Source of the DNA: a virus
Virus record (IMG/VR): IMGVR_UViG_3300034073_000569
Coordinates: 63,625 to 127,624 of that record
Strand: one strand, 5' to 3'
DNA length: 64,000 bases
The position numbers and the translations under genes are program-made. Positions 1 to 57,900 of the stretch are shown here, one piece after another. The notes below the pieces were generated by a model. The model ran no database searches. It was not told where the DNA came from and saw only the letters and a program-made list of their open reading frames with translations. Every line of letters begins with the position of its first letter. Position 1 is the stretch's first letter.

Positions 1-1
1 T

Positions 2-256
2 GACAATTTCTTGTAAGCCTCTTTGTCTAAAGTTCTCTTTAAAGTTTTCTAGCTTATCTATTTTGTCATCTAGTTTCCAATGTTTGATTGTAAAATCTCC
101 TAAGTTAGTAACATGTATTCTACTATGTTTCAAACTTGACAAACTCTTTCTTATTTCTTGCCAATAAAAGGATGTCACATCTGACACCATTTGTTGTGAC
201 AAGTTTAGCTCTTCTGCTACAATAGGGATTAGATCTTTAGACTTTCTAGGCTTCAA
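2..256 (-). CDS. HU/IHF-like DNA-binding protein (runs off window start)
   Basis: Not in ORF track. TTG start at 256 gives MKPRKSKDLIPIVAEELNLSQQMVSDVTSFYWQEIRKSL...IHVTNLGDFTI, an HU/IHF-like helix-helix plus LG.F pattern. Frame open to the edge. Confidence 0.65.
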   Translation of the reverse strand, partial: MKPRKSKDLIPIVAEELNLSQQMVSDVTSFYWQEIRKSLSSLKHSRIHVTNLGDFTIKHWKLDDKIDKLENFKENFRQRGLQEIV

Positions 257-608
257 CGCTTAAAAATTTATAGTCTAACAAAATATTTCCATTAGCGTGT
301 AACTTAAGATCAGGATTAATAAAGATCTTCTTCTTATTCTTTCCTTCCTTTTTAATAAGTCCTTTCTTCTCTGCCTTTGTCAAACAGTTACGTACAGACT
401 GTGTGCTAGAGAATATCTTCTTGTCGTATGCTTTGTTACAGAAATGCGTAAGTTCTTGGTCTCCCTCAATTGCCAGGAATGTAAGACAGTTTAAATCTGC
501 TTCACTCACTGGAATATCAAAGAGATAGCAATGTGTGAGTATCTGATATTTGACAATCTGCCAAGTGGTCATCCTCACTCTTTTATCCACCTGATTAACT
601 AGTGCCAT
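246..608 (-). CDS. winged-helix DNA-binding protein (putative)
   Basis: SSTQSVRNCLTKAEKKGLIKK..KKIFINP resembles a wHTH recognition helix plus wing. Confidence 0.55.
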   Translation of the reverse strand: MALVNQVDKRVRMTTWQIVKYQILTHCYLFDIPVSEADLNCLTFLAIEGDQELTHFCNKAYDKKIFSSTQSVRNCLTKAEKKGLIKKEGKNKKKIFINPDLKLHANGNILLDYKFLSVEA

Positions 609-1039
609 TATAATGTTATTTTAAAACTCATGTAATCTTCTTTTGTCTTGTTCCAATCCTTATGTAAAAGAACTGACTCTGCTCCTAGGTTTTTGAATAT
701 GTGCCAGCTAGCTCCATCACGAGCTTCTCCTGTAATATATTCGTAACCCATTTCCTGTGCCCAATCCATAAGAGAATGGATCATTTCATATCCTAATCCT
801 TTTCCCCTATGGCTTGGTAGTACAGTGAAACTATCTATGTGTAGTACATTGGCACTTTGCCATGATACAATAATCTCTCCAAATAATACTGACTTCTCGT
901 AGAACCACATGCCTTGACAGGTCTCATGTTCTACTAACATATATAACTTGTACTTATTATCCCATCTAAGCTCCTTTGGATGTTCACGTTCAAACTGATA
1001 TGATAGTGAATAATCCTTTAGCTTATATACTACGTTCAT
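608..1039 (-). CDS. GNAT family acetyltransferase
   Basis: Acetyl-CoA motif A VLPSHRGKGLG and C-terminal WHIFKNLG. Confidence 0.85.
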   Translation of the reverse strand: MNVVYKLKDYSLSYQFEREHPKELRWDNKYKLYMLVEHETCQGMWFYEKSVLFGEIIVSWQSANVLHIDSFTVLPSHRGKGLGYEMIHSLMDWAQEMGYEYITGEARDGASWHIFKNLGAESVLLHKDWNKTKEDYMSFKITL

Positions 1040-1048
1040 ATAATAGGT

Positions 1049-1396
1049 TTATTTCTTTAAGGATCTTTGCTTCTCTACAGCTGGAGAATTAGGGATGATC
1101 ACTTCATCCCCCACTTTAATACCCTCTTCAGCAAGTTCTGGATTATTGTCCATATCTTCCTGTGTAATAGTGTGAGGAGTGCCTTCTGGCTTTCCGCCTT
1201 GCTGTGTCATTTGTGCAATGAAAGCTAAAGCCTTAAGTTCCTTTGCTCTAGAGGTAGCAAGTCCTGTGTTCAACTGTTGCAACTGTAACTGTACAGTTTT
1301 TACCTCAATCTGCTCTTGGATAAAAGCAATAATTTCTTCTTTTGACGGAACATTCTTTACATCCTGCTCCTCTTGTAATACGTTTTCTTCTGACAT
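1049..1396 (-). CDS. hypothetical protein (coiled coil, LysM-like C-terminal half motif)
   Basis: ORF in co-oriented block. NPELAEEGIKVGDEVIIP resembles the end of a LysM repeat. Confidence 0.7.
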   Translation of the reverse strand: MSEENVLQEEQDVKNVPSKEEIIAFIQEQIEVKTVQLQLQQLNTGLATSRAKELKALAFIAQMTQQGGKPEGTPHTITQEDMDNNPELAEEGIKVGDEVIIPNSPAVEKQRSLKK

Positions 1397-1414
1397 GTTG
1401 GTTTATTTTATTGG

Positions 1415-1717
1415 TTAAAAATTTAAATCGTCACCACCAGCTTGCTCTTCTGTAGAAGACGGTGCTGCATGATGCTGAACAAATAAGTTCTGAAATTTGT
1501 GGTAAGGGGTATCTATAATGTATGTATCCCCGTGCTCCGTAAAAATGGTGGTGCAATTGTATGTGAGAGAATCCTCATCTAGGGATGTAAGCTTACAGGC
1601 CACAACGACATCTAAATGAAAAGCAAACGCCATCCACTGTCCTTGGTCCTCTATGCCCATAAGTTCTGCCTTCTCTATATCTAATGTGTGGCAGTGAATG
1701 TTACAGACGTGTATCAT
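1415..1717 (-). CDS. hypothetical protein
   Basis: 100-aa ORF with A-rich leader, first gene of leftward block. Confidence 0.75.
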   Translation of the reverse strand: MIHVCNIHCHTLDIEKAELMGIEDQGQWMAFAFHLDVVVACKLTSLDEDSLTYNCTTIFTEHGDTYIIDTPYHKFQNLFVQHHAAPSSTEEQAGGDDLNF

Positions 1718-1734
1718 TTTTTTGTTTGGTTTAT

Positions 1735-1749
1735 ATTATAATATACTTA
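1735..1749 (-). promoter_or_regulatory. putative phage (late) promoter motif TWAGTATATTATAAT
   Basis: 13-mer ATTATAATATACT (1735-1747) is identical at 29080-29092. Both lie just upstream of leftward operons. Confidence 0.55.
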
Positions 1750-1966
1750 ATAAGTTTAAACTTAACAAATTTAATAATAGATTCCAAACTTACCATAATA
1801 ATTTTTACACACTTATTAACAGCCCCCCACCTCTTAACCTATATATAGACCCCCCTCCTATTCATAAGGTTTGTGATAGAGGTTGTGAGGACCCGCCCAA
1901 CCAAGCTACCCCACCATAAGTTTGGCGGGGGAATACCCCCTCGTTTAACAAGTTAAACTTAAACTT

Positions 1967-2254
1967 ATGGCAGCAACATCATTGCATCTGCTTGCAAAGC
2001 AAGCTCTCGGTCAACTAGACACGTTGACCTTCAACATTTCGTCTGTGGAAGCTAAAGCATCCAAGACTGGAAATGTAGGCTTCCGCGTGACCACCGACCA
2101 AGGTCGTGTAGTCACTTTCTGGTCATCTTCGATGGACCAGGTCGTGGAAGCCACAGATGACGCTGGAAACTTCCAGGTCATCCCCGGCACCCGCCTTGCG
2201 GATGACGGTGGCTTGATCCCAAAGGATGCAAGCCAAGGTGGATTCTGGTCATAA
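1967..2254 (+). CDS. hypothetical early protein, GC-rich codon usage
   Basis: 95-aa ORF with AAACTTAAACTT leader, followed by a terminator. Confidence 0.85.
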   Translation: MAATSLHLLAKQALGQLDTLTFNISSVEAKASKTGNVGFRVTTDQGRVVTFWSSSMDQVVEATDDAGNFQVIPGTRLADDGGLIPKDASQGGFWS

Positions 2255-2265
2255 CCAGAACCACC

Positions 2266-2290
2266 AAAGGGGGATTATATCCCCTTTTTT
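2266..2290 (+). terminator. intrinsic terminator
   Basis: AAAGGGGGAT-TAT-ATCCCCTTTTTT. Confidence 0.8.
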
Positions 2291-2408
2291 CCGTAACCTC
2301 ACGGAACCACTTAGTACTGTATGCTGATGTTAACCTGATGTAGGTTTTCCGTTGGGATAGAGTACTAAGTTTTACTACATCTATCTATTCATCCTCAACT
2401 TATTTCTT

Positions 2409-2561
2409 ATGATCAGATCTAAGACACTCTTGTTTAATACCTGGAACTTGTTTACATACTGGTATTCATACATGAAACTAAGCTTTGATACTCTCAAGCT
2501 TAGACTAGTTAGACTAGCACCTGGATATACATCCAAAGTTTTAGTAGTTATTACGTATTAA
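2409..2561 (+). CDS. possible small protein (50 aa)
   Basis: MIRSKTLLFNTWNLFTYWYSY...VITY*, below ORF-track cutoff. Confidence 0.35.
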   Translation: MIRSKTLLFNTWNLFTYWYSYMKLSFDTLKLRLVRLAPGYTSKVLVVITY

Positions 2562-2793
2562 CGTGTGACTCTGTGAGTGGTAGGAAAGCCCTCCACACTT
2601 CTTTCATCCTTTAAAATATGCTTCTTAACCCACATTTTGGTGCGGATAAGATAGCTATAAGTCAAACAACACATGCTTTCCCTTATACCCTTGGGATGTA
2701 AGACTACAAGAGCCTTGGTCGGCACAGCTCCTAGACATGAGTGTAAACTGTCTTGTTTTATCTATCCATCATCCATTAAATACATACAGTATT

Positions 2794-3072
2794 ATGAAGT
2801 TATTATCCTACATCTTCCTTATCATAGGATCTATCCTTATGATATACACTTTTTACATAATGTTCTATCCGGCTGGTCACACAGACAAGCAGTTCATTAT
2901 GTCCCTGTTCTCTGGTATAGCTACCACTTTTCTTGGTTTCACACTTGAGACACATAGTACAAATGCTTACACACGCTTCCAGCGTGACGATAAACGTAAG
3001 AAATTACGTAGTTCCTACACTGTACTCATCCTGTCCAGTTTTCTGGTCTTAATCAGCCTTATTTGGCTTTAG
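2794..3072 (+). CDS. membrane protein (3 TM)
   Basis: Likely start MKLLSY at 2794. Three hydrophobic segments. Confidence 0.75.
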   Translation: MKLLSYIFLIIGSILMIYTFYIMFYPAGHTDKQFIMSLFSGIATTFLGFTLETHSTNAYTRFQRDDKRKKLRSSYTVLILSSFLVLISLIWL

Positions 3073-3091
3073 TTAAAAAGTTTAAGTGAGC

Positions 3092-3172
3092 TCATATTTG
3101 ACCCCATTAACATAGATACTATATAGTATACTAACTACTATGTTATGGAGGGGTCATATTTGACCTCATTAA
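3092..3172. repeat. 19-bp direct repeat flanking nested inverted repeats (operator/origin-like)
   Basis: TCATATTTGACCcCATTAA (3092-3110) and TCATATTTGACCtCATTAA (3154-3172). Internal TAACATAG/CTATGTTA arms and ATACTATATAGTAT palindrome. Confidence 0.7.
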
Positions 3173-3262
3173 AAGTATTATAGTTCCCCCAACGATAGGA
3201 GTTTATCTGTTCTACTTCACTGAACAGAGGCTTTATGGTGAAGCTTAAACCATTATTTATAT

Positions 3263-3368
3263 AGTCAGGTGGCGGAATGGTATACGCAGGGCATTACAAC
3301 CACCAAGAGATAATATCAAAGGTGTCCTATTCAAGAGTTGTTTACAGGTTCGAATCCTGTCCTGACTG
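3263..3368 (+). tRNA. tRNA-like RNA, anticodon undetermined
   Basis: Acceptor AGTCAGG/CCTGACT, D-arm GCG-GAATGGTATA-CGC, T-arm ACAGG-TTCGAAT-CCTGT. Central 56 nt do not form a canonical anticodon arm. Confidence 0.7.
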
Positions 3369-3461
3369 CTACAAACGAATGTATGGATGGTTAGCCCTGG
3401 AGATAACGTCAAAGGGGATTACCACCAATTTCTTATTTATTAACCCTTTACATACTAAATC

Positions 3462-3776
3462 ATGAAAGAAAAAGTAACTACATTTTTCAAAAACAACTAT
3501 CACTCAATAGTAATGGGTGTTATGATTGGAATCTATGCACTTGAAGTGTATAGCAAAAGAGATTCTAAAGAAGTATTAGATCTCATCACTGATAGAGTCA
3601 TCACAATCATCTGGATATTTAACTGGTGGGTTGTTATCCAGTTCAATAAGATCAATCAGAAGTATTCTGATGAAATTACTGAGCTATGGCGTAATGAATG
3701 TCAAAGACTATATGCTGTTATAGAAGAATACCACCGCATAGTACGGAAGTCTAAGGACAATACAACTAATATTTAA
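3462..3776 (+). CDS. membrane protein (2 TM)
   Basis: Two hydrophobic segments. Confidence 0.75.
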   Translation: MKEKVTTFFKNNYHSIVMGVMIGIYALEVYSKRDSKEVLDLITDRVITIIWIFNWWVVIQFNKINQKYSDEITELWRNECQRLYAVIEEYHRIVRKSKDNTTNI

Positions 3777-3793
3777 TCATTAAATAAATACAA

Positions 3794-4288
3794 ATGAAAG
3801 TATTTACTCTAACTGCTCACGGGCAGAGTCACAAAGTGACCGTGCATCTGCACAACTATTACCAGAATAACCGCTTAGCTATACAGCTTAACTCATTTGA
3901 GGACAAAGCTCCATATGCTGTGGTTACGGTGAATAAACCTGATGTCTTATTAGCAGACAACGAAGTGCTAGTTAAAGACTATTCAGAGAACGAAGGCATG
4001 CTTGACTTCCTTGTAAAGAATAACATCGTGACACCAACACCTAATGGCGTACAGTCAGGTTTTGTGTGGCTACCAATAGCTATAGTTAACGATGAATCTG
4101 TATGGGGTGAAGTTCCTAATCCTTATAGTTTAGCTGATGAGCCTGAGTATGATAATAACCTTGACCCAGCTCCAGATGAAATCAATACCACTACAGGTAA
4201 ATCCATGTGGATCATCAAAGACTATCGTATATGGGCTGACTCATATAAGCAAGCATTAGAACTCCTATCTTTAATAGAGCAAGCATGA
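3794..4288 (+). CDS. DUF4313-like protein
   Basis: Y..N.RLAIQL...PYAVVTVN...KDYSENEG.LDFL...VQSGFV pattern. Confidence 0.65.
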   Translation: MKVFTLTAHGQSHKVTVHLHNYYQNNRLAIQLNSFEDKAPYAVVTVNKPDVLLADNEVLVKDYSENEGMLDFLVKNNIVTPTPNGVQSGFVWLPIAIVNDESVWGEVPNPYSLADEPEYDNNLDPAPDEINTTTGKSMWIIKDYRIWADSYKQALELLSLIEQA

Positions 4289-4521
4289 TAAAGTTTGAAG
4301 AAACAAAGTCTAACTACAGATTACCTGCTGGTTTTCTGTTTGCTGCATGTATCATCATGATGGCATTAATTAGTCTGATTAGAAATAGTCAGCCTGTATT
4401 TGATTACCCCGAAGAGTTTAATGTACATACTATATCTAAGGATAGAGCAAACCCAACAGAAATGATGGTAGTTTATGATACCCTTAACAACAAGTATATA
4501 TTTGAATTCATGGATAAATAA
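4285..4521 (+). CDS. hypothetical membrane protein
   Basis: ATGA overlap with upstream gene, N-terminal TM. Confidence 0.75.
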   Translation: MIKFEETKSNYRLPAGFLFAACIIMMALISLIRNSQPVFDYPEEFNVHTISKDRANPTEMMVVYDTLNNKYIFEFMDK

Positions 4522-4527
4522 TTTTAT

Positions 4528-4749
4528 ATGTTAAAGATTATATCTCAATTATTAGGAACTAAGGGACCAGAGGGTCCTTTAGTTTCCAACTACATTCCTT
4601 ATACAAAATACCCAATAACACCAGAGTTTGAAGAATGGTGTAAAACATACAATGTGTCTTGCCTAGCTGATAAGCAATCAACTAGAGTAGAGATAGTAAT
4701 GGGTAATACTATAAAGATAGTAGATCTACAATCAATTTGTCATTCATAA
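4528..4749 (+). CDS. hypothetical protein
   Basis: ORF in tightly packed operon. Confidence 0.7.
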   Translation: MLKIISQLLGTKGPEGPLVSNYIPYTKYPITPEFEEWCKTYNVSCLADKQSTRVEIVMGNTIKIVDLQSICHS

Positions 4750-4760
4750 ATCCAATCCAC

Positions 4761-5171
4761 ATGTCACAGAAAAAAATGACACCCACAATTGCTAAAGCAT
4801 TAGCAGAACAAGTTCGTGATGAACTTAGAAAAACAGCTACAAGTTATGCTGAAACTACAAAGCATAAAATTAAAACTTCTAAAGAGTTTAAACAACTTGA
4901 GAAGCTGATGGTACAGAAAGCTGATATATCTAACAAGATGGATGAGATCAAACACAGTCTTGAAGAGAAGTTTTCTAGTAAGTTAGCAGATGTATCTATT
5001 TATACATACAGTGCACGTGATACTAGCATTACTATCAGAGAAACAGCTTCCGTTTCTGTAGAAGGAATCAAGAATATGATTCTTTTAGAAGATTATCTAT
5101 CTGATACTCCTGAAAATACAGAAGACTTAGTCAAGCGTATAGCTGATAAAATCATGAACAGTAAACATTAA
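4761..5171 (+). CDS. hypothetical coiled-coil protein
   Basis: Likely start MSQKK at 4761. Confidence 0.75.
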   Translation: MSQKKMTPTIAKALAEQVRDELRKTATSYAETTKHKIKTSKEFKQLEKLMVQKADISNKMDEIKHSLEEKFSSKLADVSIYTYSARDTSITIRETASVSVEGIKNMILLEDYLSDTPENTEDLVKRIADKIMNSKH

Positions 5172-5174
5172 TAA

Positions 5175-5765
5175 ATGGCATCTGCTACTAAAACAGACTA
5201 TTCTTTGTCTGTAAACAAGCGTGCAGTACAGAATGCTATATTTAATTTATACAAAAGATATAAGTTTGACAAGGTGGTTGGTTTAGCTGGTCCTAACATA
5301 ACGGACTATTTGGAATTAATGAAGCAAAACGGATTCAAGTCTGCAGAGATATATGAAAATGATATCTCTCAGCTTGCTATCCAGATGAACAGCTTTAGAC
5401 CCGTAATAGAGTCTAAGATACAGTTCGGTGACATTATTCAAGCTAAGCCTAATCAACCATACACCTTGTATGACTTAGACTTTTGCTGTAGCATTAACAC
5501 TGCTAATCAACACATTCAGAAGTTTTCTGATGATGTTGCAATAACTACTCTTTCAATTAGACCAGTGGGCTTTATGCACACTATTCTAAAGTATGCAGAA
5601 CTTATAGATAGAAAGAGCAATCCAATTATTGAATTTCTAGGTAGTGTAAACAACAACCTAGGAAAATATAGAATGTATTCTTTGACTGCAGGTAGTAAAA
5701 AATATATATGCTATCTGTACAAAGACTCTGTTCCAATGGTTACAATCCAATCAATTATTAATTAA
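5175..5765 (+). CDS. class I SAM-methyltransferase-like protein (putative)
   Basis: Rossmann-like order KVVGLAGP / EIYEND / FGDI / YDLDFC. Confidence 0.5.
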   Translation: MASATKTDYSLSVNKRAVQNAIFNLYKRYKFDKVVGLAGPNITDYLELMKQNGFKSAEIYENDISQLAIQMNSFRPVIESKIQFGDIIQAKPNQPYTLYDLDFCCSINTANQHIQKFSDDVAITTLSIRPVGFMHTILKYAELIDRKSNPIIEFLGSVNNNLGKYRMYSLTAGSKKYICYLYKDSVPMVTIQSIIN

Positions 5766-5781
5766 AACAAAAATCCAGAAC

Positions 5782-6165
5782 ATGGAAAATTTAAACAACC
5801 CATCAATTAGTAAAAAACCATTTATGTTTACTAAAGAAGAAAAAGCAATCTTAAAACCTTATGTAATAGGTGAGAAAGAGATTAACAAACAAGTTTGTGA
5901 TGAATTAAGTGTACAAATCGGTAGATCATTTAAGAACATCTATCAGTACATCTATCGTAACAAAAAAGCTGTTGGTAAATCTAAAAAAGTAAAAGCTAAC
6001 TCTGTTAAAGTTAAAGCAGATAAAACAGTTACACGTGATAAATCTGTAAATAATAACACACCTATGTTTAAACAAGGAGAGTTTATTATTCCTGTAAGTT
6101 CATGGGAAGTACGTAATAATAATGGTACAACAAGCTTAGTTTTAAAGTTTGATAAATCAATTTAG
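5782..6165 (+). CDS. hypothetical protein, possible HTH
   Basis: FTKEEKAIL...ELSVQIGRSFKNIYQYIYR (Myb/HTH-like). Confidence 0.65.
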   Translation: MENLNNPSISKKPFMFTKEEKAILKPYVIGEKEINKQVCDELSVQIGRSFKNIYQYIYRNKKAVGKSKKVKANSVKVKADKTVTRDKSVNNNTPMFKQGEFIIPVSSWEVRNNNGTTSLVLKFDKSI

Positions 6166-6174
6166 TTTAACTAC

Positions 6175-6203
6175 AAGAGGGAAGCTGTAATGGCTTCCCT
6201 TTT
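6175..6203 (+). terminator. intrinsic terminator
   Basis: AAGAGGGAAGC-TGTAATG-GCTTCCCTTTT. Confidence 0.75.
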
Positions 6204-6218
6204 ATAATATCAGTAACC

Positions 6219-6788
6219 ATGATACTAAAAGACCGTGTGATTGATCACACAAAAAGCAATCTTCATGAAGCTATGAGTATTCCTAGCTATATGAGAACTA
6301 AATGCCGTGAGCGTATTTTCTTTGCATCTTTCTCTAATGCATTACAAAGAACTGAGTTGTTTGAAGATGAAGATGATGCTCCATCAGAAATGACTACTGT
6401 TACAGGAGACTTACAGCGTTGTCTTCAATTGATTACAGATCCTTTAGAATATGAATACACTATTCTTACTTTCTTTGGTCATCAGAGAATGGCTATGGAA
6501 GTATATGGTAGGTATAAGTTTTTACAAGAGTCTGGTAATTCTAAAGAAGACAAGCTAAAGATGAGCATCTTAAACTTAGTTGAGCAATTAAAGAATAAAG
6601 ATGAAGATGATGAGGAAGAAGATGATGTAGATAACTTAAATAGCTCCACACTTCTTAAAAGAATATCTATAGTAAAAGAGTCACACTATAACTTTGATAC
6701 TTACTTAAAATTAGTAATCAAGAAACTAAGTAGCAGAGGTGATTCTGACTTTAATATAGATGATCTATTAAAGGATGTTTTAAATTAA
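6219..6788 (+). CDS. hypothetical protein
   Basis: 189-aa ORF with acidic stretch. Confidence 0.8.
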   Translation: MILKDRVIDHTKSNLHEAMSIPSYMRTKCRERIFFASFSNALQRTELFEDEDDAPSEMTTVTGDLQRCLQLITDPLEYEYTILTFFGHQRMAMEVYGRYKFLQESGNSKEDKLKMSILNLVEQLKNKDEDDEEEDDVDNLNSSTLLKRISIVKESHYNFDTYLKLVIKKLSSRGDSDFNIDDLLKDVLN

Positions 6789-6812
6789 GTTTTTAGGGGT
6801 TAGTGAGTAAGG

Positions 6813-6848
6813 TGTAGTAGGGGGTCTTTGACTCCCTCTACATTTTTT
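6813..6848 (+). terminator. intrinsic terminator
   Basis: TGTAG-T-AGGGGGTC-TTT-GACTCCCT-CTACA-TTTTTT. Confidence 0.7.
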
Positions 6849-6876
6849 GTTTAGTCTAATAAACGTTGTAGATTTG
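6846..6876 (+). promoter_or_regulatory. Bacteroidota sigma70-type promoter
   Basis: TTTG(6846-49)-N19-TAGATTTG(6869-76) matches TTTG-N19-21-TAnnTTTG. Confidence 0.7.
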
Positions 6877-6897
6877 TTATACACAACCACATAATAC

Positions 6898-7185
6898 ATG
6901 AAGAACACAAACCCACGTTTAAATAATGGCTTTGGTCAAGTCTCTAATGAAGTTATGAGAGATCCAGAGTTATCTTTAAAAGACAAGGGCTTGTATGCAT
7001 ATTTATGTACGTTTGCTGGTAGTCAGACTAATGAATTAATAGTCAGTGTCTACCGTATGGCAGATGAGTGTGGTACAAGTCCTTCTACTATTAAAAGAAG
7101 TATAGAAGTATTACAAGCAAAAGGAATCATAGATAGAATCTTTATGGGTAAAGGTAACACCAGAAAGACTATCATTTTGAAATAA
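6898..7185 (+). CDS. winged-helix protein (HTH_36 / replication-initiator N-terminus-like)
   Basis: GFGQVSNEVMRDPELSLKDKGLYAYL...MADECGTSPSTIKRSIEVLQAKGII. Confidence 0.8.
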   Translation: MKNTNPRLNNGFGQVSNEVMRDPELSLKDKGLYAYLCTFAGSQTNELIVSVYRMADECGTSPSTIKRSIEVLQAKGIIDRIFMGKGNTRKTIILK

Positions 7186-7194
7186 AAGCTTTAA

Positions 7195-7953
7195 GGCAAG
7201 TGGGACACGTGCACATATATTAGGTGTTATACACGCTAGTATATGAATAAGTCCTTGTCCCCACGCCATGTTATTGTGCAAGTCTGACCGACAGAGCTAG
7301 TAAAAGTTGTACAGGTAGCGAAAGGTTGAGCTGGTTTAACAACATGATGAATGGTCCTATGATATATAAACCTTGCAAAAGTTTATATGGAGGTAGTTTA
7401 TCTAGTTATTCAAGTGCTCCCCAAGTGACGTACAACCGTCCGATGTGTCACTATCCTGTTAGTAGCCTTGCACATATCTTATTAACTGATTACAAAAGAC
7501 ACCTAAATCCTCCGGGTTGTGTCAGTTGTAATAGTTAGTGTACAAAGGGTCTGATTTAGAGAGCTAAGTAGCGTATTAACCATAATTACAAGGGCAGTAT
7601 CCGCGAACCCCTTCAGTAATAGAGACGTCTATGAACCAGCAAGTAGCATGATCAGAACAATGTAGATCCATAAGAACTATGGAACCTTTAGATAGACCCT
7701 TTTTTAAAAATATTACTAGGTTGAAGCCAGATATAGGTAATAAAACCGACCCGTGATGCGTCCTATGTAACATAGTTATATAGAGCCGATATAAAGCCGG
7801 ACATCTAGGAGCAGTTAGCTTAATATATGTTATTGGAAGCTACTTATACGTCACGTGTAGCAAAAACAGGATAAACAAACGGTAAATTTTTCCAAGCCTG
7901 AACTTTATTACTAACGAACTAAAGAGATAGGATGAGACACCTATCTCTTTTTT
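7195..7953 (+). ncRNA. candidate large structured ncRNA (~760 nt)
   Basis: No credible ORF. At least eight nested or long-range helices, repeated AGTA/GAA motifs, and a strong 3' terminator (see findings). Confidence 0.7.
7921..7953 (+). terminator. intrinsic terminator
   Basis: AAAGAGATAGG-ATGAGACA-CCTATCTCTTT-TTT. Confidence 0.85.
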
Positions 7954-7965
7954 AATTTAAAGTAT

Positions 7966-8241
7966 ATGGACAAACATTTATTATTAATCTGTAGCTGCTA
8001 TAGCTCAGAACATCAAATGATTATACATCTAGATGAAGGTGGTGATTTATATCCACCTGAAGCTTTTGTACATATTCATTTAGTAAGACGATCTTTTTGG
8101 TACCGTCTTAAGTATGGAATAAAATATATATTTGGATACAAGTCCAGATACGGTGCATGGGACGAATTTATCTTAGATAAAACTCATGCAAAATCTCTTA
8201 GAGAAATAGCTAAACACTTAGATGATGAAACAGTATACTAA
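7966..8241 (+). CDS. hypothetical protein
   Basis: CxC..EH and FWYRLKYGIKYIFG pattern typical of small phage ORFs. Confidence 0.75.
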   Translation: MDKHLLLICSCYSSEHQMIIHLDEGGDLYPPEAFVHIHLVRRSFWYRLKYGIKYIFGYKSRYGAWDEFILDKTHAKSLREIAKHLDDETVY

Positions 8242-8779
8242 ACTACCTATTCCTACTGATTCAGCATGGGATAGATTTAAATGGGGACGTTATGTCCACT
8301 GGCGTATTAGATATTTCTTTCAAGGTGTTAGAAATATAGTAAGATGGATTCCTACACTCTATCATGATAGAGACTGGGACGATTATTATATTACTAAAAT
8401 GCTTCAAAAGAAAATAGAGTTTCAAAGAGCTCATTTAGTATACTGCAATAGACATCTTAATATTGAGAGAGACAACTTCTGGATGACTGTAGTTCTCAAC
8501 TTACTAGAGCGTAAGCATGAATGCTATTACGAGATAGAATATCATGACTATATAAAAATGGGTCCTAACATACCTAGAGAAATTAGATATGAAGGAGTTA
8601 ATGAATATATAGCTAAATATCCAGGAGTTAAAAGACGTGCACTAGCTAAATATAAGAAGTATAAGTACATCCAAGAAAGTGATGCACTATCTATGTTTAT
8701 GGCAAGTGAACGTCAACGTAAATGTGATGCTTTAATATTTGAAATACTTAAACAACATTCTGCTGAATGGTGGGATTAA
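8222..8779 (+). CDS. hypothetical protein
   Basis: DRDWD motif and C-terminal WWD. Confidence 0.8.
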   Translation: MMKQYTKLPIPTDSAWDRFKWGRYVHWRIRYFFQGVRNIVRWIPTLYHDRDWDDYYITKMLQKKIEFQRAHLVYCNRHLNIERDNFWMTVVLNLLERKHECYYEIEYHDYIKMGPNIPREIRYEGVNEYIAKYPGVKRRALAKYKKYKYIQESDALSMFMASERQRKCDALIFEILKQHSAEWWD

Positions 8780-8789
8780 ATAAATTAAT

Positions 8790-9839
8790 ATGAATAACGT
8801 TTGGACAAAATCAGCTAATAACTACGCTATAAAAGAAGTTAGTCAACAACTTCCTCTGTTACCAGTAGGAATATACAAGTATCAATTAGATCAGTATGAA
8901 CAACCGTTTCTTACTCAAATAGCTGATAAGTTTCATTTTCCATATAAGATATATGGTGTAGAACGCTCTTTTATAGATAGAGTGAAGCGTTCATGGACAG
9001 AAACTACAGGTAACTTTGGTGTATTACTTAATGGTGTGAAAGGTACGGGTAAGACTGTTACAGCAGAAATGATCTGTAACGAAATGAACTTACCAGTTAT
9101 CGTCATACCATTTCACCACAAGTCTATTGTGTCTTTCTTAAATGAAATACAACAAGATGTTATTGTGTTTATAGATGAGTTTGAGAAAATCTATGACGGT
9201 TATAATAATTCATTACTTCCTATCATGGATGGTGCATTAAAAACCAAGCATAGATTGATGTTCTTACTTACTACTAATGAATTACGTATAGAGCGTAACT
9301 TGTTACAGCGTCCTAGTCGTATCAGATACGTAAAGACGTTTGAAGACATGACTCTACCAGTAATTATGGAAGTAGTTAACGACACACTCTTACATCCTGA
9401 GCTACGTGAGTGTACAATCAAGATGATTTCAGAACTACCTATCATCACTATGGACTTAGTTAAGTCTATTGTACAAGAAGTAAACATTCATCATGAAGAT
9501 CCTCAGTTGTTTAAGCCAATCTTTAATGTACATGCAGATAGAGATGAACTGTTCAATGTTTCTGCAATGATTGATGGTCAAAAACAAGAGGTGGCTACAT
9601 TTGCTCACGTAAGTCCTAGATATATTGTTGCAAATGCTTCTGTAGGAGAAGAATTCTGTGTAAACTATAGTGAAATAGGTGATATTGTATCTGTAATATC
9701 TGACAGTCAGATTGTTGTAAAACAAACATTCTACAATAAGTTAGAAGATGGTTCTGAAGAAGAAGTAACACAAGATATAATCTATTACTTAGAGAAAGCT
9801 ACCAAAACACATAGATCATTTAACTCTTACGCATTTTAG
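8790..9839 (+). CDS. AAA+ ATPase
   Basis: Walker A GVKGTGKT, Walker B IVFIDEFEK, TTN sensor, RPSRI arginine finger. Confidence 0.9.
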   Translation: MNNVWTKSANNYAIKEVSQQLPLLPVGIYKYQLDQYEQPFLTQIADKFHFPYKIYGVERSFIDRVKRSWTETTGNFGVLLNGVKGTGKTVTAEMICNEMNLPVIVIPFHHKSIVSFLNEIQQDVIVFIDEFEKIYDGYNNSLLPIMDGALKTKHRLMFLLTTNELRIERNLLQRPSRIRYVKTFEDMTLPVIMEVVNDTLLHPELRECTIKMISELPIITMDLVKSIVQEVNIHHEDPQLFKPIFNVHADRDELFNVSAMIDGQKQEVATFAHVSPRYIVANASVGEEFCVNYSEIGDIVSVISDSQIVVKQTFYNKLEDGSEEEVTQDIIYYLEKATKTHRSFNSYAF

Positions 9840-9841
9840 TT

Positions 9842-10381
9842 ATGACACAAGAACAATTTATTGAGATAAAAGGTGAGTATCTAGATAAAATCAAAAAGAT
9901 GATTTTAGAGCTAGGTAATATAGAGCCTCATGTAACGATCATTGGTAATGATTTAGAAGAAGATAAGCCTGCTATTATACATATTCCTCTTCCTGAAAAG
10001 ATAGCTAATTCAGATAATGGCAAACAGTTGTTTGTAGATAAAATGATTCCTGAGATAGCTGTTAAAATAAAAGAAAGATTTGATGTACAAGCAGTTTGTT
10101 TTGCATCTGAAGCATGGATGCGTGAGTCACATAAGGATGACTTTAATCCAGATCAAGATGACTACAAAAAATTACCTATTAGTAAAGAGATTTTAATAGT
10201 TACTATAGACACAGAGACTGAAACAGAAAGTCATGTATATGAGATTATTAGAATGTCAGTTTCTCCTACAGGTGATATAGTAGAAGATATTGAACTTAGG
10301 GACATGCCTGAGCTTAGTCATCAGTATGCCACTAATGAAGGTAGGTTTAGTGGATTATACAAAAAGTTTACTACCGTATAA
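9842..10381 (+). CDS. hypothetical protein
   Basis: 179-aa ORF with FASEAW motif. Confidence 0.8.
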   Translation: MTQEQFIEIKGEYLDKIKKMILELGNIEPHVTIIGNDLEEDKPAIIHIPLPEKIANSDNGKQLFVDKMIPEIAVKIKERFDVQAVCFASEAWMRESHKDDFNPDQDDYKKLPISKEILIVTIDTETETESHVYEIIRMSVSPTGDIVEDIELRDMPELSHQYATNEGRFSGLYKKFTTV

Positions 10382-10391
10382 ATTTATAATT

Positions 10392-10565
10392 ATGATTAAA
10401 TGGTTTAAAAGTTTAGTTACAAACTACAAGAGAGTAAAAGAGTTAGAGACTGAAATAGTAGTTTTAAATGATAAAATCATTGAAAAACAAGATATCATCA
10501 ATAAAACCAATGCATATTGGAAGAAAAAGATGTATCATCAAAATAAAAAAGCTAAAGAGTCATAG
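10392..10565 (+). CDS. small coiled-coil protein
   Basis: Likely start MIKWFKS at 10392. Confidence 0.65.
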   Translation: MIKWFKSLVTNYKRVKELETEIVVLNDKIIEKQDIINKTNAYWKKKMYHQNKKAKES

Positions 10566-10654
10566 CTTATAGCTCTATTATCCGTAGTTTCTGCATATTA
10601 TGTTTGCTAGTTATGCTATATTACTTAGTTTTATGGTAGACTAATCATACTAAA

Positions 10655-10918
10655 ATGCTCTATCAACTACCTAACGGAAGGGTAATAGAAATAAGTACCG
10701 AGCAGTATTTTGAAATGACTGACGAAGAGCTAGAATATTTAATAGCTTATAACTATGGTGATAATTTAGAAGATCCATGGTTTGGTTCAGTAATTCATAA
10801 GAAAACTTCTTCAGCATATGAAGAAGAAACTCCTGAAGTACTACCTGATCTAACTAAGATATCTAACGAAGATAAGATTAGTTATACAGACATTGACTAT
10901 AAGCCTGACGAAGAATAA
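10655..10918 (+). CDS. small acidic hypothetical protein
   Basis: MLYQLPNGRVIEIS, acidic. Confidence 0.8.
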   Translation: MLYQLPNGRVIEISTEQYFEMTDEELEYLIAYNYGDNLEDPWFGSVIHKKTSSAYEEETPEVLPDLTKISNEDKISYTDIDYKPDEE

Positions 10919-10944
10919 CTTTTATTATTTATTTACTTATGTAC

Positions 10945-10974
10945 ACCCCTGGGACACAATCTCAGGGGTTTTTT
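10945..10974 (+). terminator. intrinsic terminator
   Basis: ACCCCTGGGA-CACAA-TCTCAGGGGT-TTTTT. Confidence 0.8.
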
Positions 10975-10997
10975 GTTTATTTTAAAATCAATTTTAC

Positions 10998-11501
10998 ATG
11001 AAACAAAGTAAAGTTAGAGTTACCGCTGATATTAACGGTAACGTAATTGGGGTATCCCAAAACAACCCAGAGTACGGTTATGTACGTGTGGAGCAGTCAG
11101 TAACACAAATTAGTGAGGCTGGTTGGTTAAAACCTGTTAAACGCTCAGCGTTAATTAAGGGTAAAGTAGAAGACTTAGCACAAGCTGGGTTTGTAGAAGG
11201 CCATGAGCTTTCAGGTAAGATTATTGTAAAAGAATCTCTTACACCATTTAATCCTGAGAATCCAGACAAAGACTTAAAGATTGCTGGACAAACAGGCGTA
11301 GTTTGTAGAATAGATGATCAACCAATCTATCGTCAAACATTCTATACTTCTAATCAAGATGCTTATGATGAGTTAATTACTCATGATAATACAACTGAGA
11401 TCCGTGAGGTACAAGTTGCACAGAAAGAGATTACTTCTCTAAAGAACAGTGCTTTAAACGACTTAAGTCGTAAGATCTTAGCTGAAGAAGCTAATTTATA
11501 A
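10998..11501 (+). CDS. hypothetical protein
   Basis: 167-aa ORF between two terminators. Confidence 0.85.
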   Translation: MKQSKVRVTADINGNVIGVSQNNPEYGYVRVEQSVTQISEAGWLKPVKRSALIKGKVEDLAQAGFVEGHELSGKIIVKESLTPFNPENPDKDLKIAGQTGVVCRIDDQPIYRQTFYTSNQDAYDELITHDNTTEIREVQVAQKEITSLKNSALNDLSRKILAEEANL

Positions 11502-11507
11502 CTATAC

Positions 11508-11537
11508 TAAGAGGGCTCAGCAATGAGCTCTCTTTTT
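11508..11537 (+). terminator. intrinsic terminator
   Basis: AAGAGGGCTCA-GCAA-TGAGCTCTCTT-TTT. Confidence 0.8.
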
Positions 11538-11571
11538 ATATACCATTCCATCACAATTATTATGTTTAGCC

Positions 11572-12093
11572 ATGAGCAACCCAAACAAAACAGTTTCAGC
11601 TAACTCCAAAGGCATAGTTGTGTCTTTTGGAGATGTTAACAAGCATAGATTCATCAAGTATGAACCTACTGCTGTTCAACAAATTCAACTTTATGGTACA
11701 GTTAAGTATCAAAAGATTGAACAACCGGGATTTAACCATGTACAAGAAAAGCTTTATTATGAAGCTTTACATGGTTTAAACTTCTATACTACAGAAGAGA
11801 TTAAAGCTATGTCTGTAGAAAAGAAGAGAAGTATTGTTGTATTATATACAAGAGTGCAGAAATTACTTAACAGGTGGAAACAAGAAATTATATGCAAGCA
11901 GGTAGATAATCTACTTATAGCATTATTTCCTAACTCACCTATTGCAAAAACTATGATTGAAAGTGAGTATTATGACAAAGATCTTGAATGTCCATTATCT
12001 CTTAGAGAACTTGGCATTACAAGTGATAAACTCATTGCAGAAAAACTAGTCCAAGGGAAACTATTACCGTATAACTTTTTTAAATTAACTTAA
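11572..12093 (+). CDS. hypothetical protein
   Basis: 173-aa ORF. Confidence 0.8.
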   Translation: MSNPNKTVSANSKGIVVSFGDVNKHRFIKYEPTAVQQIQLYGTVKYQKIEQPGFNHVQEKLYYEALHGLNFYTTEEIKAMSVEKKRSIVVLYTRVQKLLNRWKQEIICKQVDNLLIALFPNSPIAKTMIESEYYDKDLECPLSLRELGITSDKLIAEKLVQGKLLPYNFFKLT

Positions 12094-54902: not shown

Positions 54903-57900
54903 TTATTTACCTTTTTTATTACATTTAACAGATTCATCCTCTTTTTTAGAGATAGTATCATCTACTTCCTTATTCTCGTTTAAGCTTTTTAAAGCATTCT
55001 CAGCTAGAGCCTTTAGACCATTGTTCTGAGTCTTCTCACCTGCTAATTCACCCATGGCTTTAATAAACCCTGGTTGTCTCATCAAGTCTTTAGCAGATAC
55101 ATATCCTTCAGATGCACTTAATGCAGCTTGTGTTTCTATCTGCATTACATTACCTGGTAAGATAGACTCTTGATCATCTTTATAGATCTCAAGCATACGG
55201 TTTCTATTTCCAGCTTTACCAATAGGAATGTATATGATCTTTCCTTTCTTATCTTTCTGTTCAGTCTTTTGGAACAAGATTGGTTGGAAAGCTTGAGCTA
55301 AGCTCTTATCTTTCTTCATCTTCTTGAATTCTTCCTTACTAATCTTAGGATCACGTACATATTTTACTAAGTAGTCATTAAGAATAATAGAACTATTAGC
55401 ACTAACAGCCAACTGACCACTCTTAATTCTTAACCAAGCTGGTGCTTTAGTTACAATTGATCTATTATACCAGTTGTTCTGATGGAAAGATTTCCATACT
55501 TGATCTACTGATATAGATGGGTCTAATTTAAATCTATCTAAGATTGTCTTTACAAGCTCAGAGTAAATCTCAGTACTTAGTACCTTCTTATAGTCAATAA
55601 AACTACTTTGTAAACCTGACTGCAATATACTAAATTTAGCTAGGTCATCAGCAAATTTAACTAGGTTATCATCAGCTGTTTTTTCACCGTAACTTCTTAA
55701 GTTATTATAGGCTTCTATAACATTGTTAATCTGGAAAGTATCCATCTTATTTCTGAACAACATGATGTTATCTGTCTTAGTAGCATCATCTGTCATTAAC
55801 GGTACTAACTCCTTGATAATCAAGTTGTCAGAGATGTTTGGATCTTCTGAGTTCTTATACTTGTACAATGCACTAGCAAAAGAATTCTCTCCTGTAAATA
55901 AGTCTTTATATAAACTGTTCAATGTTTCTTGCTTTCCTTCAGCGTTCATATACGGTGTAGTATGAAGTAAGTAAGCAATCACAAAGTTTTGGTATCTATT
56001 AATCAAGTTAATAGCATCATCCTTCATAATAAAGAACTCTGGATTATCTATCTTATCATACAATGGTTGGAATACCTCTTGGATCTCAGGAGACAATGTA
56101 ATAAAGAAGTTTCTAAACATGCTGAAGATATCTTCTTTTTGCTCCTTCATCTCTCCTAAGAAAGTACTCTCTAGAATAGAATCCGGGTTGTTAACAAAGT
56201 TCTCTTGTTTAGATCTTTCCCAACGACCAATTTGTAACATGTTTTCTTGTACAGTTTTAGTCTTATTGGTATCATATCCAATAGCTTGCATGAAGTTAGA
56301 CATTAATCTAGCTTGTGCTTCATACTCTACATAGTCCATAATTACAGCAATTTGTAATCTTGGATCAGCATTGCTACCATCTTTAATAGCTTTAACTAAT
56401 TCTTTACTATCAAATGTCTCAACGCTATCTCTGATCTCATTGAGCTCAGCTAAGATAAGTTTTTGTAACGCATCTTCTTGAGCTTTAGATGATTGAGCAG
56501 CTCCAGCAAGCATAGCCTCTAAGTCACCACCTACTACTTTATTATAGTAAGGTGCAATAACCTTATAGAATAATTCTTTTCTAGTTAAGTTCTCACCATT
56601 AATAACTTTAAATGAAGATCTATTCTTAGACGTTTCTGTAAACAAGCTATCTAAGATAGGTTGACCAAAGAAATAAGCTAACTCATCTACTGGTACACCA
56701 TGGTGTTGTAAATAGAACCAAGTACTAGCTGTATTCAATGAGAAGTTTAAGTCAAATACAAATGGATCTTTAGCACCATCCACAAAGCCAGATAAGGCTT
56801 GTGAGATAAGTTCACTAATAAATGCACCTGCTTTATCTAGTCTATGACCAATTGAGTATAGACCATTCTCATCTCTACCGTGGTGAGTAAGCTTAATGTT
56901 TACTGTTTTAGTATCTTCTCCTTTAGCATTTAAGTAATAGATGCTCTTAGAACTATATCTATTGTTTAACTTAAGACCACTAACTTGAGCCATTACGTGG
57001 AATGTAGAATGTACTGCTGCAATACCTACCATTCTCTTAGCTGTTAAGTAACGCTCACGAATACTGTTAGATCCAATAAATGTTCTTAAGTATGTAGGAG
57101 ACTTCTCATCTTCTAGTTGTTTAGTACCAGCTTCAACTTTCCATCCTTTAATCTCTTCTGCAAGATCTTTAAGAGTATCCGTTGTATTTGGAGCTACAAG
57201 TTGAGCATAGTTCTCTGGTCTAAGAATAAGTTCAGACATGATGTTGATTAACTTATTCTGTAAGCTTTCCTTAGTACCAAGCGTAGGCTTAATGTAACGG
57301 ATAACCTTTTGTCCTTTTACAGAAGCATTATATCTAGAAAGACTAGCCTTAATAAACGCTAAGTCTTCTTGTGTTTCTTTAGAAGCACTAATATCACTTA
57401 AGCTAGTTTTAGCTCCTTTGACAATCTTGCCTCTATCTGTATATGTAGATTCATTGATCTGCTTGAACTGCTCTGGTGTAATAACGTTCATTACGTTATC
57501 TGCATATGTTTGATCAGCACCAGAAGAGATCATATCATTAATCATGAAATCTCTAAAGTCTTTACCAGAGTAATCTTTACCAAGAATATCTACAAAGTAA
57601 TTACCTAAATAGATATTAAGCTTATCTATATCAAAGTCAGATCCAGCTTTACCAACAATCTCAGAAGGAACTACAATCATATCACCATTAGTGGTAGGAG
57701 TAAATCCTTTAATGATAATACTTTCAATTGAGTTCATACCCTGTGTAGGAATACGGAAACCAATAGCTTTAAGTAGCTCATTATCAATACCTTTGATACC
57801 ACCTTCTGGCATTAAATAAATACCATTTACTAATTTTAATCCTAACTCTTCTGGAGTAACCTCAGTAAAAGGCCATGTAATATACATCTCTACACCTTGA

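Follow-up and report, generated by a model that had tools for sequence, protein, structure and literature searches.

The window analysed here, 64,000 nucleotides that make up the second half of a 127.6-kb virus record of IMG/VR (IMGVR_UViG_3300034073_000569, rated 98% complete), contains at positions 7186-7965 a 780-nt gap between genes from whose + strand several self-contained structured RNA domains are very probably transcribed. This gap is the window's longest stretch free of open reading frames (ORFs) of at least 75 aa on both strands; the initial annotation of this DNA had singled it out as the largest ORF-free gap, a description that stands at 75 aa and fails at a cut-off of 60 aa, where ORFs at 7326-7538 (+, 70 aa) and 7576-7773 (-, 65 aa) break it up. 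These two short ORFs are not kept among close relatives, five of seven of which lack any ORF of at least 60 aa in the gap, and no long frame runs across 7186-7965 when TAG is decoded as Q, TGA as W or TAA as Q; the stretch is non-coding under four genetic codes. Its G+C content is 0.40, as against 0.30-0.35 in the flanks.

The alignment of the eight closest gaps, together with profile searches, divides the stretch into modules that all lie on the + strand. Module A consists of A1 (7197-7268), a long hairpin (7200-07/7256-64) around an inner stem and followed by GCCA, and of A2 (7275-7474), which is closed on itself by 7275-82/7467-74 and holds the inner helices 7306-12/7430-36 and 7364-71/7381-88. 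Module B comprises the hairpin P1 (7479-7540; strands 7483-7496/7525-7537) and a multi-branched core (7544-7707) that is closed by the 15-bp helix P2 (7546-7561/7686-7700) and ends in a U-tract. Module C is made of domain I (7716-7808), with helices 7716-21/7803-08 and 7746-48/7798-7800 and a hairpin at 7760-66/7780-86, and of domain II (7814-7915), with helices 7814-19/7910-15, 7833-38/7890-95 and 7839-43/7857-61.

Signals for transcription stand on either side of these modules. A terminator-like hairpin with a T-run, located by a terminator scan at 6819-6846 (+; hairpin 6819-6837), ends the preceding gene and is kept in seven of nine aligned relatives. It is followed at 6847-6876 (+) by a match to TTG-N19-TAnnTTTG, which we take to be the Bacteroidota housekeeping promoter consensus and which a regular-expression scan finds three times on the + strand of the 64 kb and nowhere inside 7186-7965; a TAnnTTTG or TAnnATTG box is aligned in the window and in L027, L028, L033, L034 and L037 (handles of this form denote the compared loci). 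The gene of a 95-aa winged helix-turn-helix (wHTH) protein comes next (6898-7185, +), and the island ends with an intrinsic terminator, also from the terminator scan (7921-7950, +; 11-bp stem, 8-nt loop, T-run to 7956), whose stems differ in sequence among relatives yet stay paired, as judged by eye. The next ORF begins 10 nt beyond the T-run, at 7966. To judge by the sequence, the promoter match and the two terminators frame the wHTH gene and the RNAs as one unit.

The phage itself is a freshwater crAss-like phage and probably infects Bacteroidota. A 3031-aa ORF at 54903-63998 (-) has homologues only among Crassvirales (87 records, including Cellulophaga phage phi14:2), the best match reaching 29.7% identity over 80% of a 1000-aa piece. 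With the 780 nt as query, blastn found no match among 50,697 phage records, and a pattern scan of bacterial and archaeal genomes returned three stretches, none confirmed by nhmmer and hence attributed to chance, so that no prophage or host was found in this way.

Structure and covariation of the RNA modules

All seven helix pairs that the initial annotation had proposed in this stretch were found at the positions given there: five are perfect complements (7275-82/7467-74, 7306-12/7430-36, 7364-71/7381-88, 7544-52/7694-7702 and 7452-60/7865-73), 7200-07/7256-64 pairs with one bulged C, and 7481-87/7533-39 pairs with one G-U. Perfect inverted repeats are in excess over 200 mononucleotide shuffles, with 48 7-mers against 26 +/- 6.8 and 17 8-mers against 6.8 +/- 3.1. 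When the whole gap is folded, the + strand has z = -2.64 (0/20 shuffles as good) and the - strand z = -1.78; against 200 shuffles, the single modules have z = -4.15 for B (0/200), -1.79 for A (10/200) and -1.43 for C (17/200). The expectation that the stretch folds better than shuffled controls is thereby upheld for the whole + strand and for B but not clearly so for A and C, the strong thermodynamic signal being that of B alone among the modules. A supposed abundance of AGTA and GAAC words was likewise borne out in part, since AGTA, with 8 occurrences for 10.2 +/- 2.8 in dinucleotide shuffles, shows no enrichment while GAAC does (7 against 2.5 +/- 1.5; 4/500).

The comparative evidence comes from relatives that were gathered through the flanking proteins and by way of one conserved pattern, which gave 21 stretches in viral contigs and 40 in metagenome contigs. 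Sixty-two matches to B at E <= 1e-10 correspond to 36 distinct sequences, and once the truncated L039 had been dropped, RNAalifold on the remaining 35 gave a structure of 32 pairs that consists of P1, P2 and a small hairpin. In these 35 sequences 97.3% of the cells are standard pairs, and 13 pairs, with 93 cells, are compensatory; none of 500 shuffles scored as high, and sliding the partners by 1-3 columns left 13 compensatory cells at most. P1 contributes 13 pairs, eight of them compensatory, with 96.9% of cells paired, and P2 contributes 15 pairs, four of them compensatory, with 99.8% of cells paired. Both helices share an invariant CUGAU opposite AUAG with a bulged G, and behind P2 almost every one of the 35 sequences has a U-tract. 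A covariance model of P1 (R1) scores 49.1 bits at the P1 site and matches nowhere else in the window.

Module C behaves in the same manner across 12 distinct sequences: of its 34 pairs, 98% paired, 11 are compensatory (35 cells, compared with five at most in the slid controls). Domain I accounts for 15 pairs by RNAalifold and pair counts, six compensatory and 100% paired, and helices 4, 6 and 7 of domain II for five compensatory pairs. In both modules G-U cells far outnumber A-C cells (108 versus 7 in B, 30 versus 1 in C), from which it follows that the + strand carries the structure. With compensatory pairs above the shuffled or slid controls and with this G-U excess, B and C have the properties of structured non-coding RNAs in the generic sense.

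Module A is known from seven distinct sequences of 85% mean identity, too few variants to judge it well. By eye, the apical stem of A1 changes from GTGT/ACAC to GTAG/CTAC in L004 and L081, a compensatory change, and in L003 and L004 the inner helices of A2 are spelled differently yet still pair; the helix that closes A2 is uninformative because it is invariant. Covariation among homologues, which the initial annotation had named as a check, is thus present in B and C and visible by eye in A (n=7), and together with the structure of the + strand it bears out the annotation's claim of structured non-coding RNA.

Some smaller features of the modules may be recorded here. The end of the A1 hairpin (...CCCACGCCA, window 7265-7268) has the look of an acceptor-like stem followed by GCCA, and a 9-mer of this end, which recurs once more in the extra insert that L028 carries between A and B, could act as a tRNA-like processing signal. 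The sequence GTCTGA...GAGCTA(A)GTA stands directly inside the closing helix of A2 as well as of the B core, which is taken as a resemblance only; as a paralogue of the B core A2 was rejected, the local alignment score being 17 against 16.6 +/- 2.2 in shuffles (132/300 as high). The interior of B contains the self-complementary TGATCA (7651-7656), which is CGATCG in L033, both ends having changed together, and which is absent in L030, L031, L056 and L069; it might form a kissing contact or pair, as an alternative, with the 5' strand of P2.

Modular make-up and novelty of the island

Relatives combine the modules in different ways, with B as the constant core and A and C as apparent accessory modules. 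Of the 36 distinct loci with B, 16 show C, six have the full A and four have only A1; 26 lack an A module and 20 show no C, some of these contigs ending early. Where A1 occurs alone it stands directly before B (L056/L064, L066, L074), and in three loci (L031, L032, L065) a tRNA lies immediately upstream of B. L028 and L029 have A and B without C, the next gene starting 13 nt past B, and there are further inserts: L028 and L029 carry a hairpin on the 5' side, and between A and B in L027-L029 lies a piece of 75-190 nt. In L061 and L056/L064 a 244-aa ORF separates B from C.

Genes for transfer-messenger RNA (tmRNA) that score above the Rfam cut-off lie on the same strand downstream of B, or of B and C, in 9 of 34 distinct loci scanned, a lower bound in that many contigs end early. 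Two of the matches span 684 nt against a model of 374 positions (L045 2397-3080, L080 2252-2935), and these tmRNA genes seem to carry a large insertion. The 244-aa ORF, which has a DGQHR motif and lies exactly between B and C (L064 1326-2060, +; L061 4607-5341, -), may be a mobile gene; a ParB-like identity was considered and dropped, there being no Pfam match at E <= 0.001. In L034 an ORF with a NADAR domain (4561-5049, +; Pfam E 6e-50) is situated between B and the tmRNA gene, and the RNA island also seems to gather such accessory genes, which may be anti-defence.

A mosaic of this kind, varying between close relatives and accompanied by accessory ORFs such as those with NADAR in L034 and of 244 aa in L061 and L064, is what one would expect of selfish or decaying sequence without benefit to the phage, that is, of remnants of mobile RNA genes (tRNA-like, intron-like) accumulating in a permissive hot spot. 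We find this barely credible: B persists in 36 distinct versions with compensatory changes and invariant motifs while the wHTH protein falls to 45% identity, and no intron or ribozyme model matches.

The initial annotation had regarded the stretch as a single RNA of about 760 nt. The separability of the modules in relatives, the closure of each module on itself and the lack of any conserved helix joining two modules among relatives are at odds with that, and the island is, as far as its sequence tells, a set of separable modules and not one indivisible RNA. The only inter-module pairing that had been put forward, a 9-bp pseudoknot between A2 and C (7452-60/7865-73), had to be given up, for its partners occur independently: the A2 side is present in L028 and L029, which lack C, the C-side 9-mer is present in L033, which lacks A, and L030-L032 have C with different letters at the partner site.

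A modified version would see one large ornate RNA of about 770 nt, with B as its core and A and C as variable periphery, which might multimerize as ROOL and GOLLD do. The latter are large ornate RNAs of phages and prophages that lie near tRNA-type genes, form multimers and had no known function at their discovery. They share with the present RNA a length of several hundred nucleotides, a multi-domain build, an enrichment in G+C and a phage setting, with tRNA-type or tmRNA genes nearby in relatives. Moreover, a single promoter and a single strong terminator frame all modules, the self-complementary TGATCA could serve as a kissing contact, and contigs assembled from metatranscriptomes bridge A and B (record 19 of run X17, which has a relative's 75-nt insert and ends at 7708) and run from the wHTH gene into A (record 2 of run X15). 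Here, however, the domains are separable, have their own closing helices, are variously combined and, as with B and C in L061 and L064, may have a protein gene between them; in addition to the counts of loci without A or C and the partners of the sole inter-module helix that occur alone, the palindrome is missing from four loci, and no ROOL or other Rfam match was obtained. We therefore regard one large RNA as improbable.

Searches for known RNAs were uniformly negative. None of the 4227 families of Rfam 15 matched 7186-7965 at gathering score in a cmscan search, as the initial annotation had required of a novel RNA, and at E <= 10 the interval 7100-8050 gave only two chance-level matches, to SpF03 sRNA (E 0.31) and to MESTIT1_3 (E 6.4), both of them on the - strand. 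The ROOL model (RF03087; cut-off 99.1 bits), which cmscan of the window and of 7100-8050 did not hit either, found nothing at E <= 10 across all 127.6 kb of the phage, a result that comes without a positive control for sensitivity, 14 control genomes having likewise given none. GOLLD, OLE, HEARO and raiA, which we take to be members of the Rfam library, gave no match in the cmscan of the gap, and the idea of a divergent GOLLD or ROOL member finds no support in any model match. As had been anticipated, no Rfam model of group I or II introns, RNase P RNA or known self-cleaving ribozymes matches the gap; two matches to a group II intron piece (RF01998; E 0.995 and 6.1) both lie outside the island, and the 95-aa gene is not a split exon, because its full length is kept in 12 aligned homologues down to 44% identity. 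For tmRNA (RF00023) the phage gave no match at E <= 1, ARAGORN found none in window or genome, and no SmpB gene was found in the window's phage. Nor did the gap match any Y-RNA-type family of Rfam, or the phage a TROVE domain at E <= 0.01.

Matching nothing in Rfam 15, whether ROOL, tmRNA, RNase P or introns, the modules are uncatalogued RNA families, in keeping with the annotation's alternative of a new class; the general category to which they belong, phage islands of structured non-coding RNAs, is known. No description of these RNAs was found in the literature searched; the csRNA catalogue of PMC10690425, with 8495 IMG/VR candidates of 29-151 nt, may include parts of these modules as sub-hairpins.

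The winged-helix gene and the transcription unit

The 95-aa protein matches Pfam HTH_36 (E 5.6e-9) and, with E values of 2e-11 to 7e-10, the PHROG families of replication initiators and DnaD-like proteins, the matches being confined to the N-terminal part of profiles of 308-455 positions. Its AlphaFold model (pLDDT 88) has a winged-helix fold, whose neighbours in the PDB are the wHTH domain of CodY (E 1e-3, none better) and the N-domains of plasmid RepA, all DNA-binding winged helices. Sequence and model alike show a likeness of the protein to the N-terminal domain by which replication initiators of phages and plasmids bind DNA. In all 35 distinct loci with enough sequence the gene lies directly upstream of B on the same strand (the 36th B contig, with only 117 nt upstream, was left out of this count), although the protein diverges to 45% identity across the B loci. 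At several loci no more than a few bases lie between the wHTH stop codon and the start of B, and there gene and RNA must therefore be co-transcribed.

Since replication origins usually adjoin their initiator gene, we also considered a replication origin or primer-RNA locus served by the initiator-like wHTH protein, in which the structures would form as single-stranded DNA or in an origin transcript. The protein's matches to initiators are confined to their origin-binding N-terminal domain, in L041-L043 the wHTH domain heads Rep-like proteins of 312-343 aa that are followed by an ORF of about 430 aa, and G-T wobble pairs are tolerated in single-stranded DNA too. On the other side, there are no iterons, with only four two-copy direct repeats of 10-15 nt, and the stretch is richer in G+C than its flanks, unlike an AT-rich unwinding element; it is framed by a promoter and a terminator and is deeper than its flanks in RNA libraries. 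The cumulative GC-skew minimum coincides with a switch of gene orientation at about 2900-3200 of the window, some 4 kb upstream of the RNA island, and this is a more likely origin site. An origin at the island is accordingly very improbable in our judgement.

Evidence of RNA comes from public sequencing runs, 20 of which contain the stretch wholly or partly, six of them being RNA libraries. In four RNA runs from four studies, contigs of the assembled metatranscriptomes could be compared for depth, and in 4/4 those over 7242-7911 are deeper than those of the flanks (about 61-73 versus 0-8 in X16, 7-21 versus 0-2 in X18, 24-44 versus 0-16 in X17 and 56-72 versus 8-38 in X15); this is weak evidence, as contig depth cannot rank genes and DNA may contaminate RNA libraries. 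The end at 7708 of the contig that bridges A and B and the end at 7702 of another RNA-run contig both fall at the U-tract of B. In X16, adapter-tagged contig ends at 6899, 7459 and 7896 are not interpretable as RNA ends, and gaps in the cover by RNA contigs, such as 7510-7643 in that run, are not read as absence.

The closest known analogue, by comparison of the two loci, is the early intergenic RNAs of Cellulophaga phage phi14:2. According to the preprint on that phage (bioRxiv 10.1101/2020.03.07.982082), two extended stretches between genes (g004-g005 and g005-g006) are transcribed rightward above most genes; these RNAs are present from the first time point, stay abundant while other early transcripts fall, and have a function 'to be determined'. 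Both phages are crAss-like, and both have a long gene-free stretch a few kb into the rightward, co-oriented non-structural part of the genome (the phi14:2 record has no current gene at 2904-4602). An excess of RNA from this stretch over that of neighbouring genes is a measurement in phi14:2 and here is only hinted at by contig depth, and in both tmRNA belongs to the island, namely at 4031-4502 (+) of phi14:2 (L108, NC_021806) and in nine relatives of the window, albeit not in the window's own phage. The phi14:2 match scores 46.0 bits for a cut-off of 47 (E 1.4e-16); it sits in the g005-g006 gap, for which the record lists no RNA feature. The likeness does not extend to sequence: nhmmer profiles of A, B and C reach at best E 0.031 over 32 nt in positions 1-12000 of phi14:2, the best hit of the P1 model R1 has E 0.84 and falls on the opposite strand within a coding gene, and the flanking proteins are unrelated. 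No homologue of the wHTH protein was found among the crAss records of the phage collection, in which tblastn returned three weak matches to it in Firmicute phages.

The layout of the unit also invites a reading in which B, perhaps together with A or C, works in cis within the early transcript as it is being made and steers read-through of terminators, by antitermination or attenuation, with the wHTH protein as the protein part. HK022 put, the Bacillus EAR element and lambda N/nut resemble B in being RNA of an early or operon transcript, upstream of terminators and with a small protein gene adjoining. The unit lies inside a long co-oriented gene array, B follows directly upon its first gene in 35/35 loci, a U-tract stands behind the closing helix of B almost throughout, and no host-type promoter match occurs inside 7186-7965; as the next ORF begins 5-15 nt past the last terminator or U-tract (window 7966, L028 5076, L029 4997), leaving no room for a promoter, the downstream genes must be read through. 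B is nonetheless about 230 nt long and multi-branched, far above the size of put, nut or EAR, to which we found no homology, and it accumulates as RNA: the greater depth of the RNA stretch over both flanks and the persistence of the phi14:2 RNAs point to stable accumulated RNAs. In L031, L032 and L065, moreover, a tRNA lies between the wHTH gene and B, which implies that the transcript is cut there, and a phage polymerase that ignores hairpins might instead read the downstream genes. A cis-acting role is on balance unlikely, but we count it as a genuine contender.

A proposed trans-acting role and its implications

The interpretation that we favour, and to which we would assign an even chance as a whole, is that a modular RNA forms part of one early transcription unit with the wHTH gene and acts in trans. 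The stretch would be the non-coding part of this unit, whose order would be a terminator, a host-type promoter, the 95-aa wHTH gene, the RNA domains A1-A2-B-C and a second terminator; related phages would add or drop A and C, or swap them for tRNA, tmRNA or small accessory genes. The modules would act as stable RNAs, freed by processing or by partial termination at the U-tract of B, and would outlast the mRNA made with them because the long-range closing helix of each domain should protect it from exonucleases. B would be bound through its two invariant bulged-G helices (CUGAU/AUAG), perhaps by a dimeric protein, for which the wHTH protein is the obvious candidate. The recurrence of tRNA and tmRNA genes in the island leads us to guess that the field of action is the take-over or surveillance of host RNA and translation, where the RNAs might serve as decoy, sponge or scaffold.

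Two narrower propositions call for more reserve. That the modules are trans-acting, protein-bound RNAs partnered with the wHTH protein is put forward tentatively, our doubts outweighing our confidence. Bolder, and in our view rather improbable, is the proposition that B and the 95-aa protein are a dedicated two-part phage ribonucleoprotein of an undescribed kind, in which a re-used initiator domain would hold an RNA of about 230 nt by the bulged-G helices; the particle would act early in infection, its target being host RNA or translation surveillance, or would serve as decoy to an RNA-targeting defence, and A, C, the tRNA-like elements and tmRNA would then be exchangeable accessories. There is a resemblance to the Y RNAs (including bacterial and phage RNAs of the YrlA type) with their partner Ro60/Rsr, modular stable non-coding RNAs in which a helix with a bulged nucleotide is the presumed protein site. 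The modular build, the conserved bulged-nucleotide helix and the position beside tRNA-like modules are common to both; here, in contrast, the motif is CUGAU/AUAG with a bulged G and occurs twice, and the phage has no TROVE gene.

Several observations weigh against a trans-acting role. The binding of B by the wHTH protein is purely our inference, the protein's neighbours in sequence and fold being DNA binders and replication initiators, and the link to tRNA and tmRNA is one of genomic proximity only. L040 (4001-5744) has a wHTH gene of 49% identity followed by a 481-aa AAA ATPase and no B; it is the only wHTH locus of its type found without B. As to structure, RNAalifold on 13 type-1 sequences gave no convincing consensus for the interior of B, the evidence for A consists of seven near-identical sequences, and the folds of A and of a single C sequence are not clearly better than those of shuffles. 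The evidence of RNA, besides the weakness of depth as a measure, consists of assembled contigs. Lastly, the lack of room for a promoter ahead of the ORF at 7966 means that some transcription reads through the terminator at 7921-7950, and such read-through fits a cis-regulatory role at least as well.

Apart from the island, the window contains at 3263-3368 (+) an Rfam tRNA match of 39.3 bits, a putative tRNA-shaped gene with a large insert, in that the match spans 106 nt for a model of 71 positions; ARAGORN reports no tRNA anywhere in the phage.

These findings bear on phages that are among the most abundant known. The only crAss-like transcriptome, that of phi14:2, left two very abundant early non-coding RNAs unexplained, and a freshwater crAss-like branch is now seen to keep a comparable island. 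To this the present analysis adds an island of uncatalogued RNA families with clear covariation and three candidate alignments for new families, along with a hint that such islands, that of phi14:2 among them, include tmRNA. The fact that B is locked to the wHTH gene in every relative examined provides a concrete pair of protein and RNA with defined motifs. If these RNAs are decoys, scaffolds or antiterminators, they would represent a new RNA-based layer in the take-over of the host by crAss-like phages.

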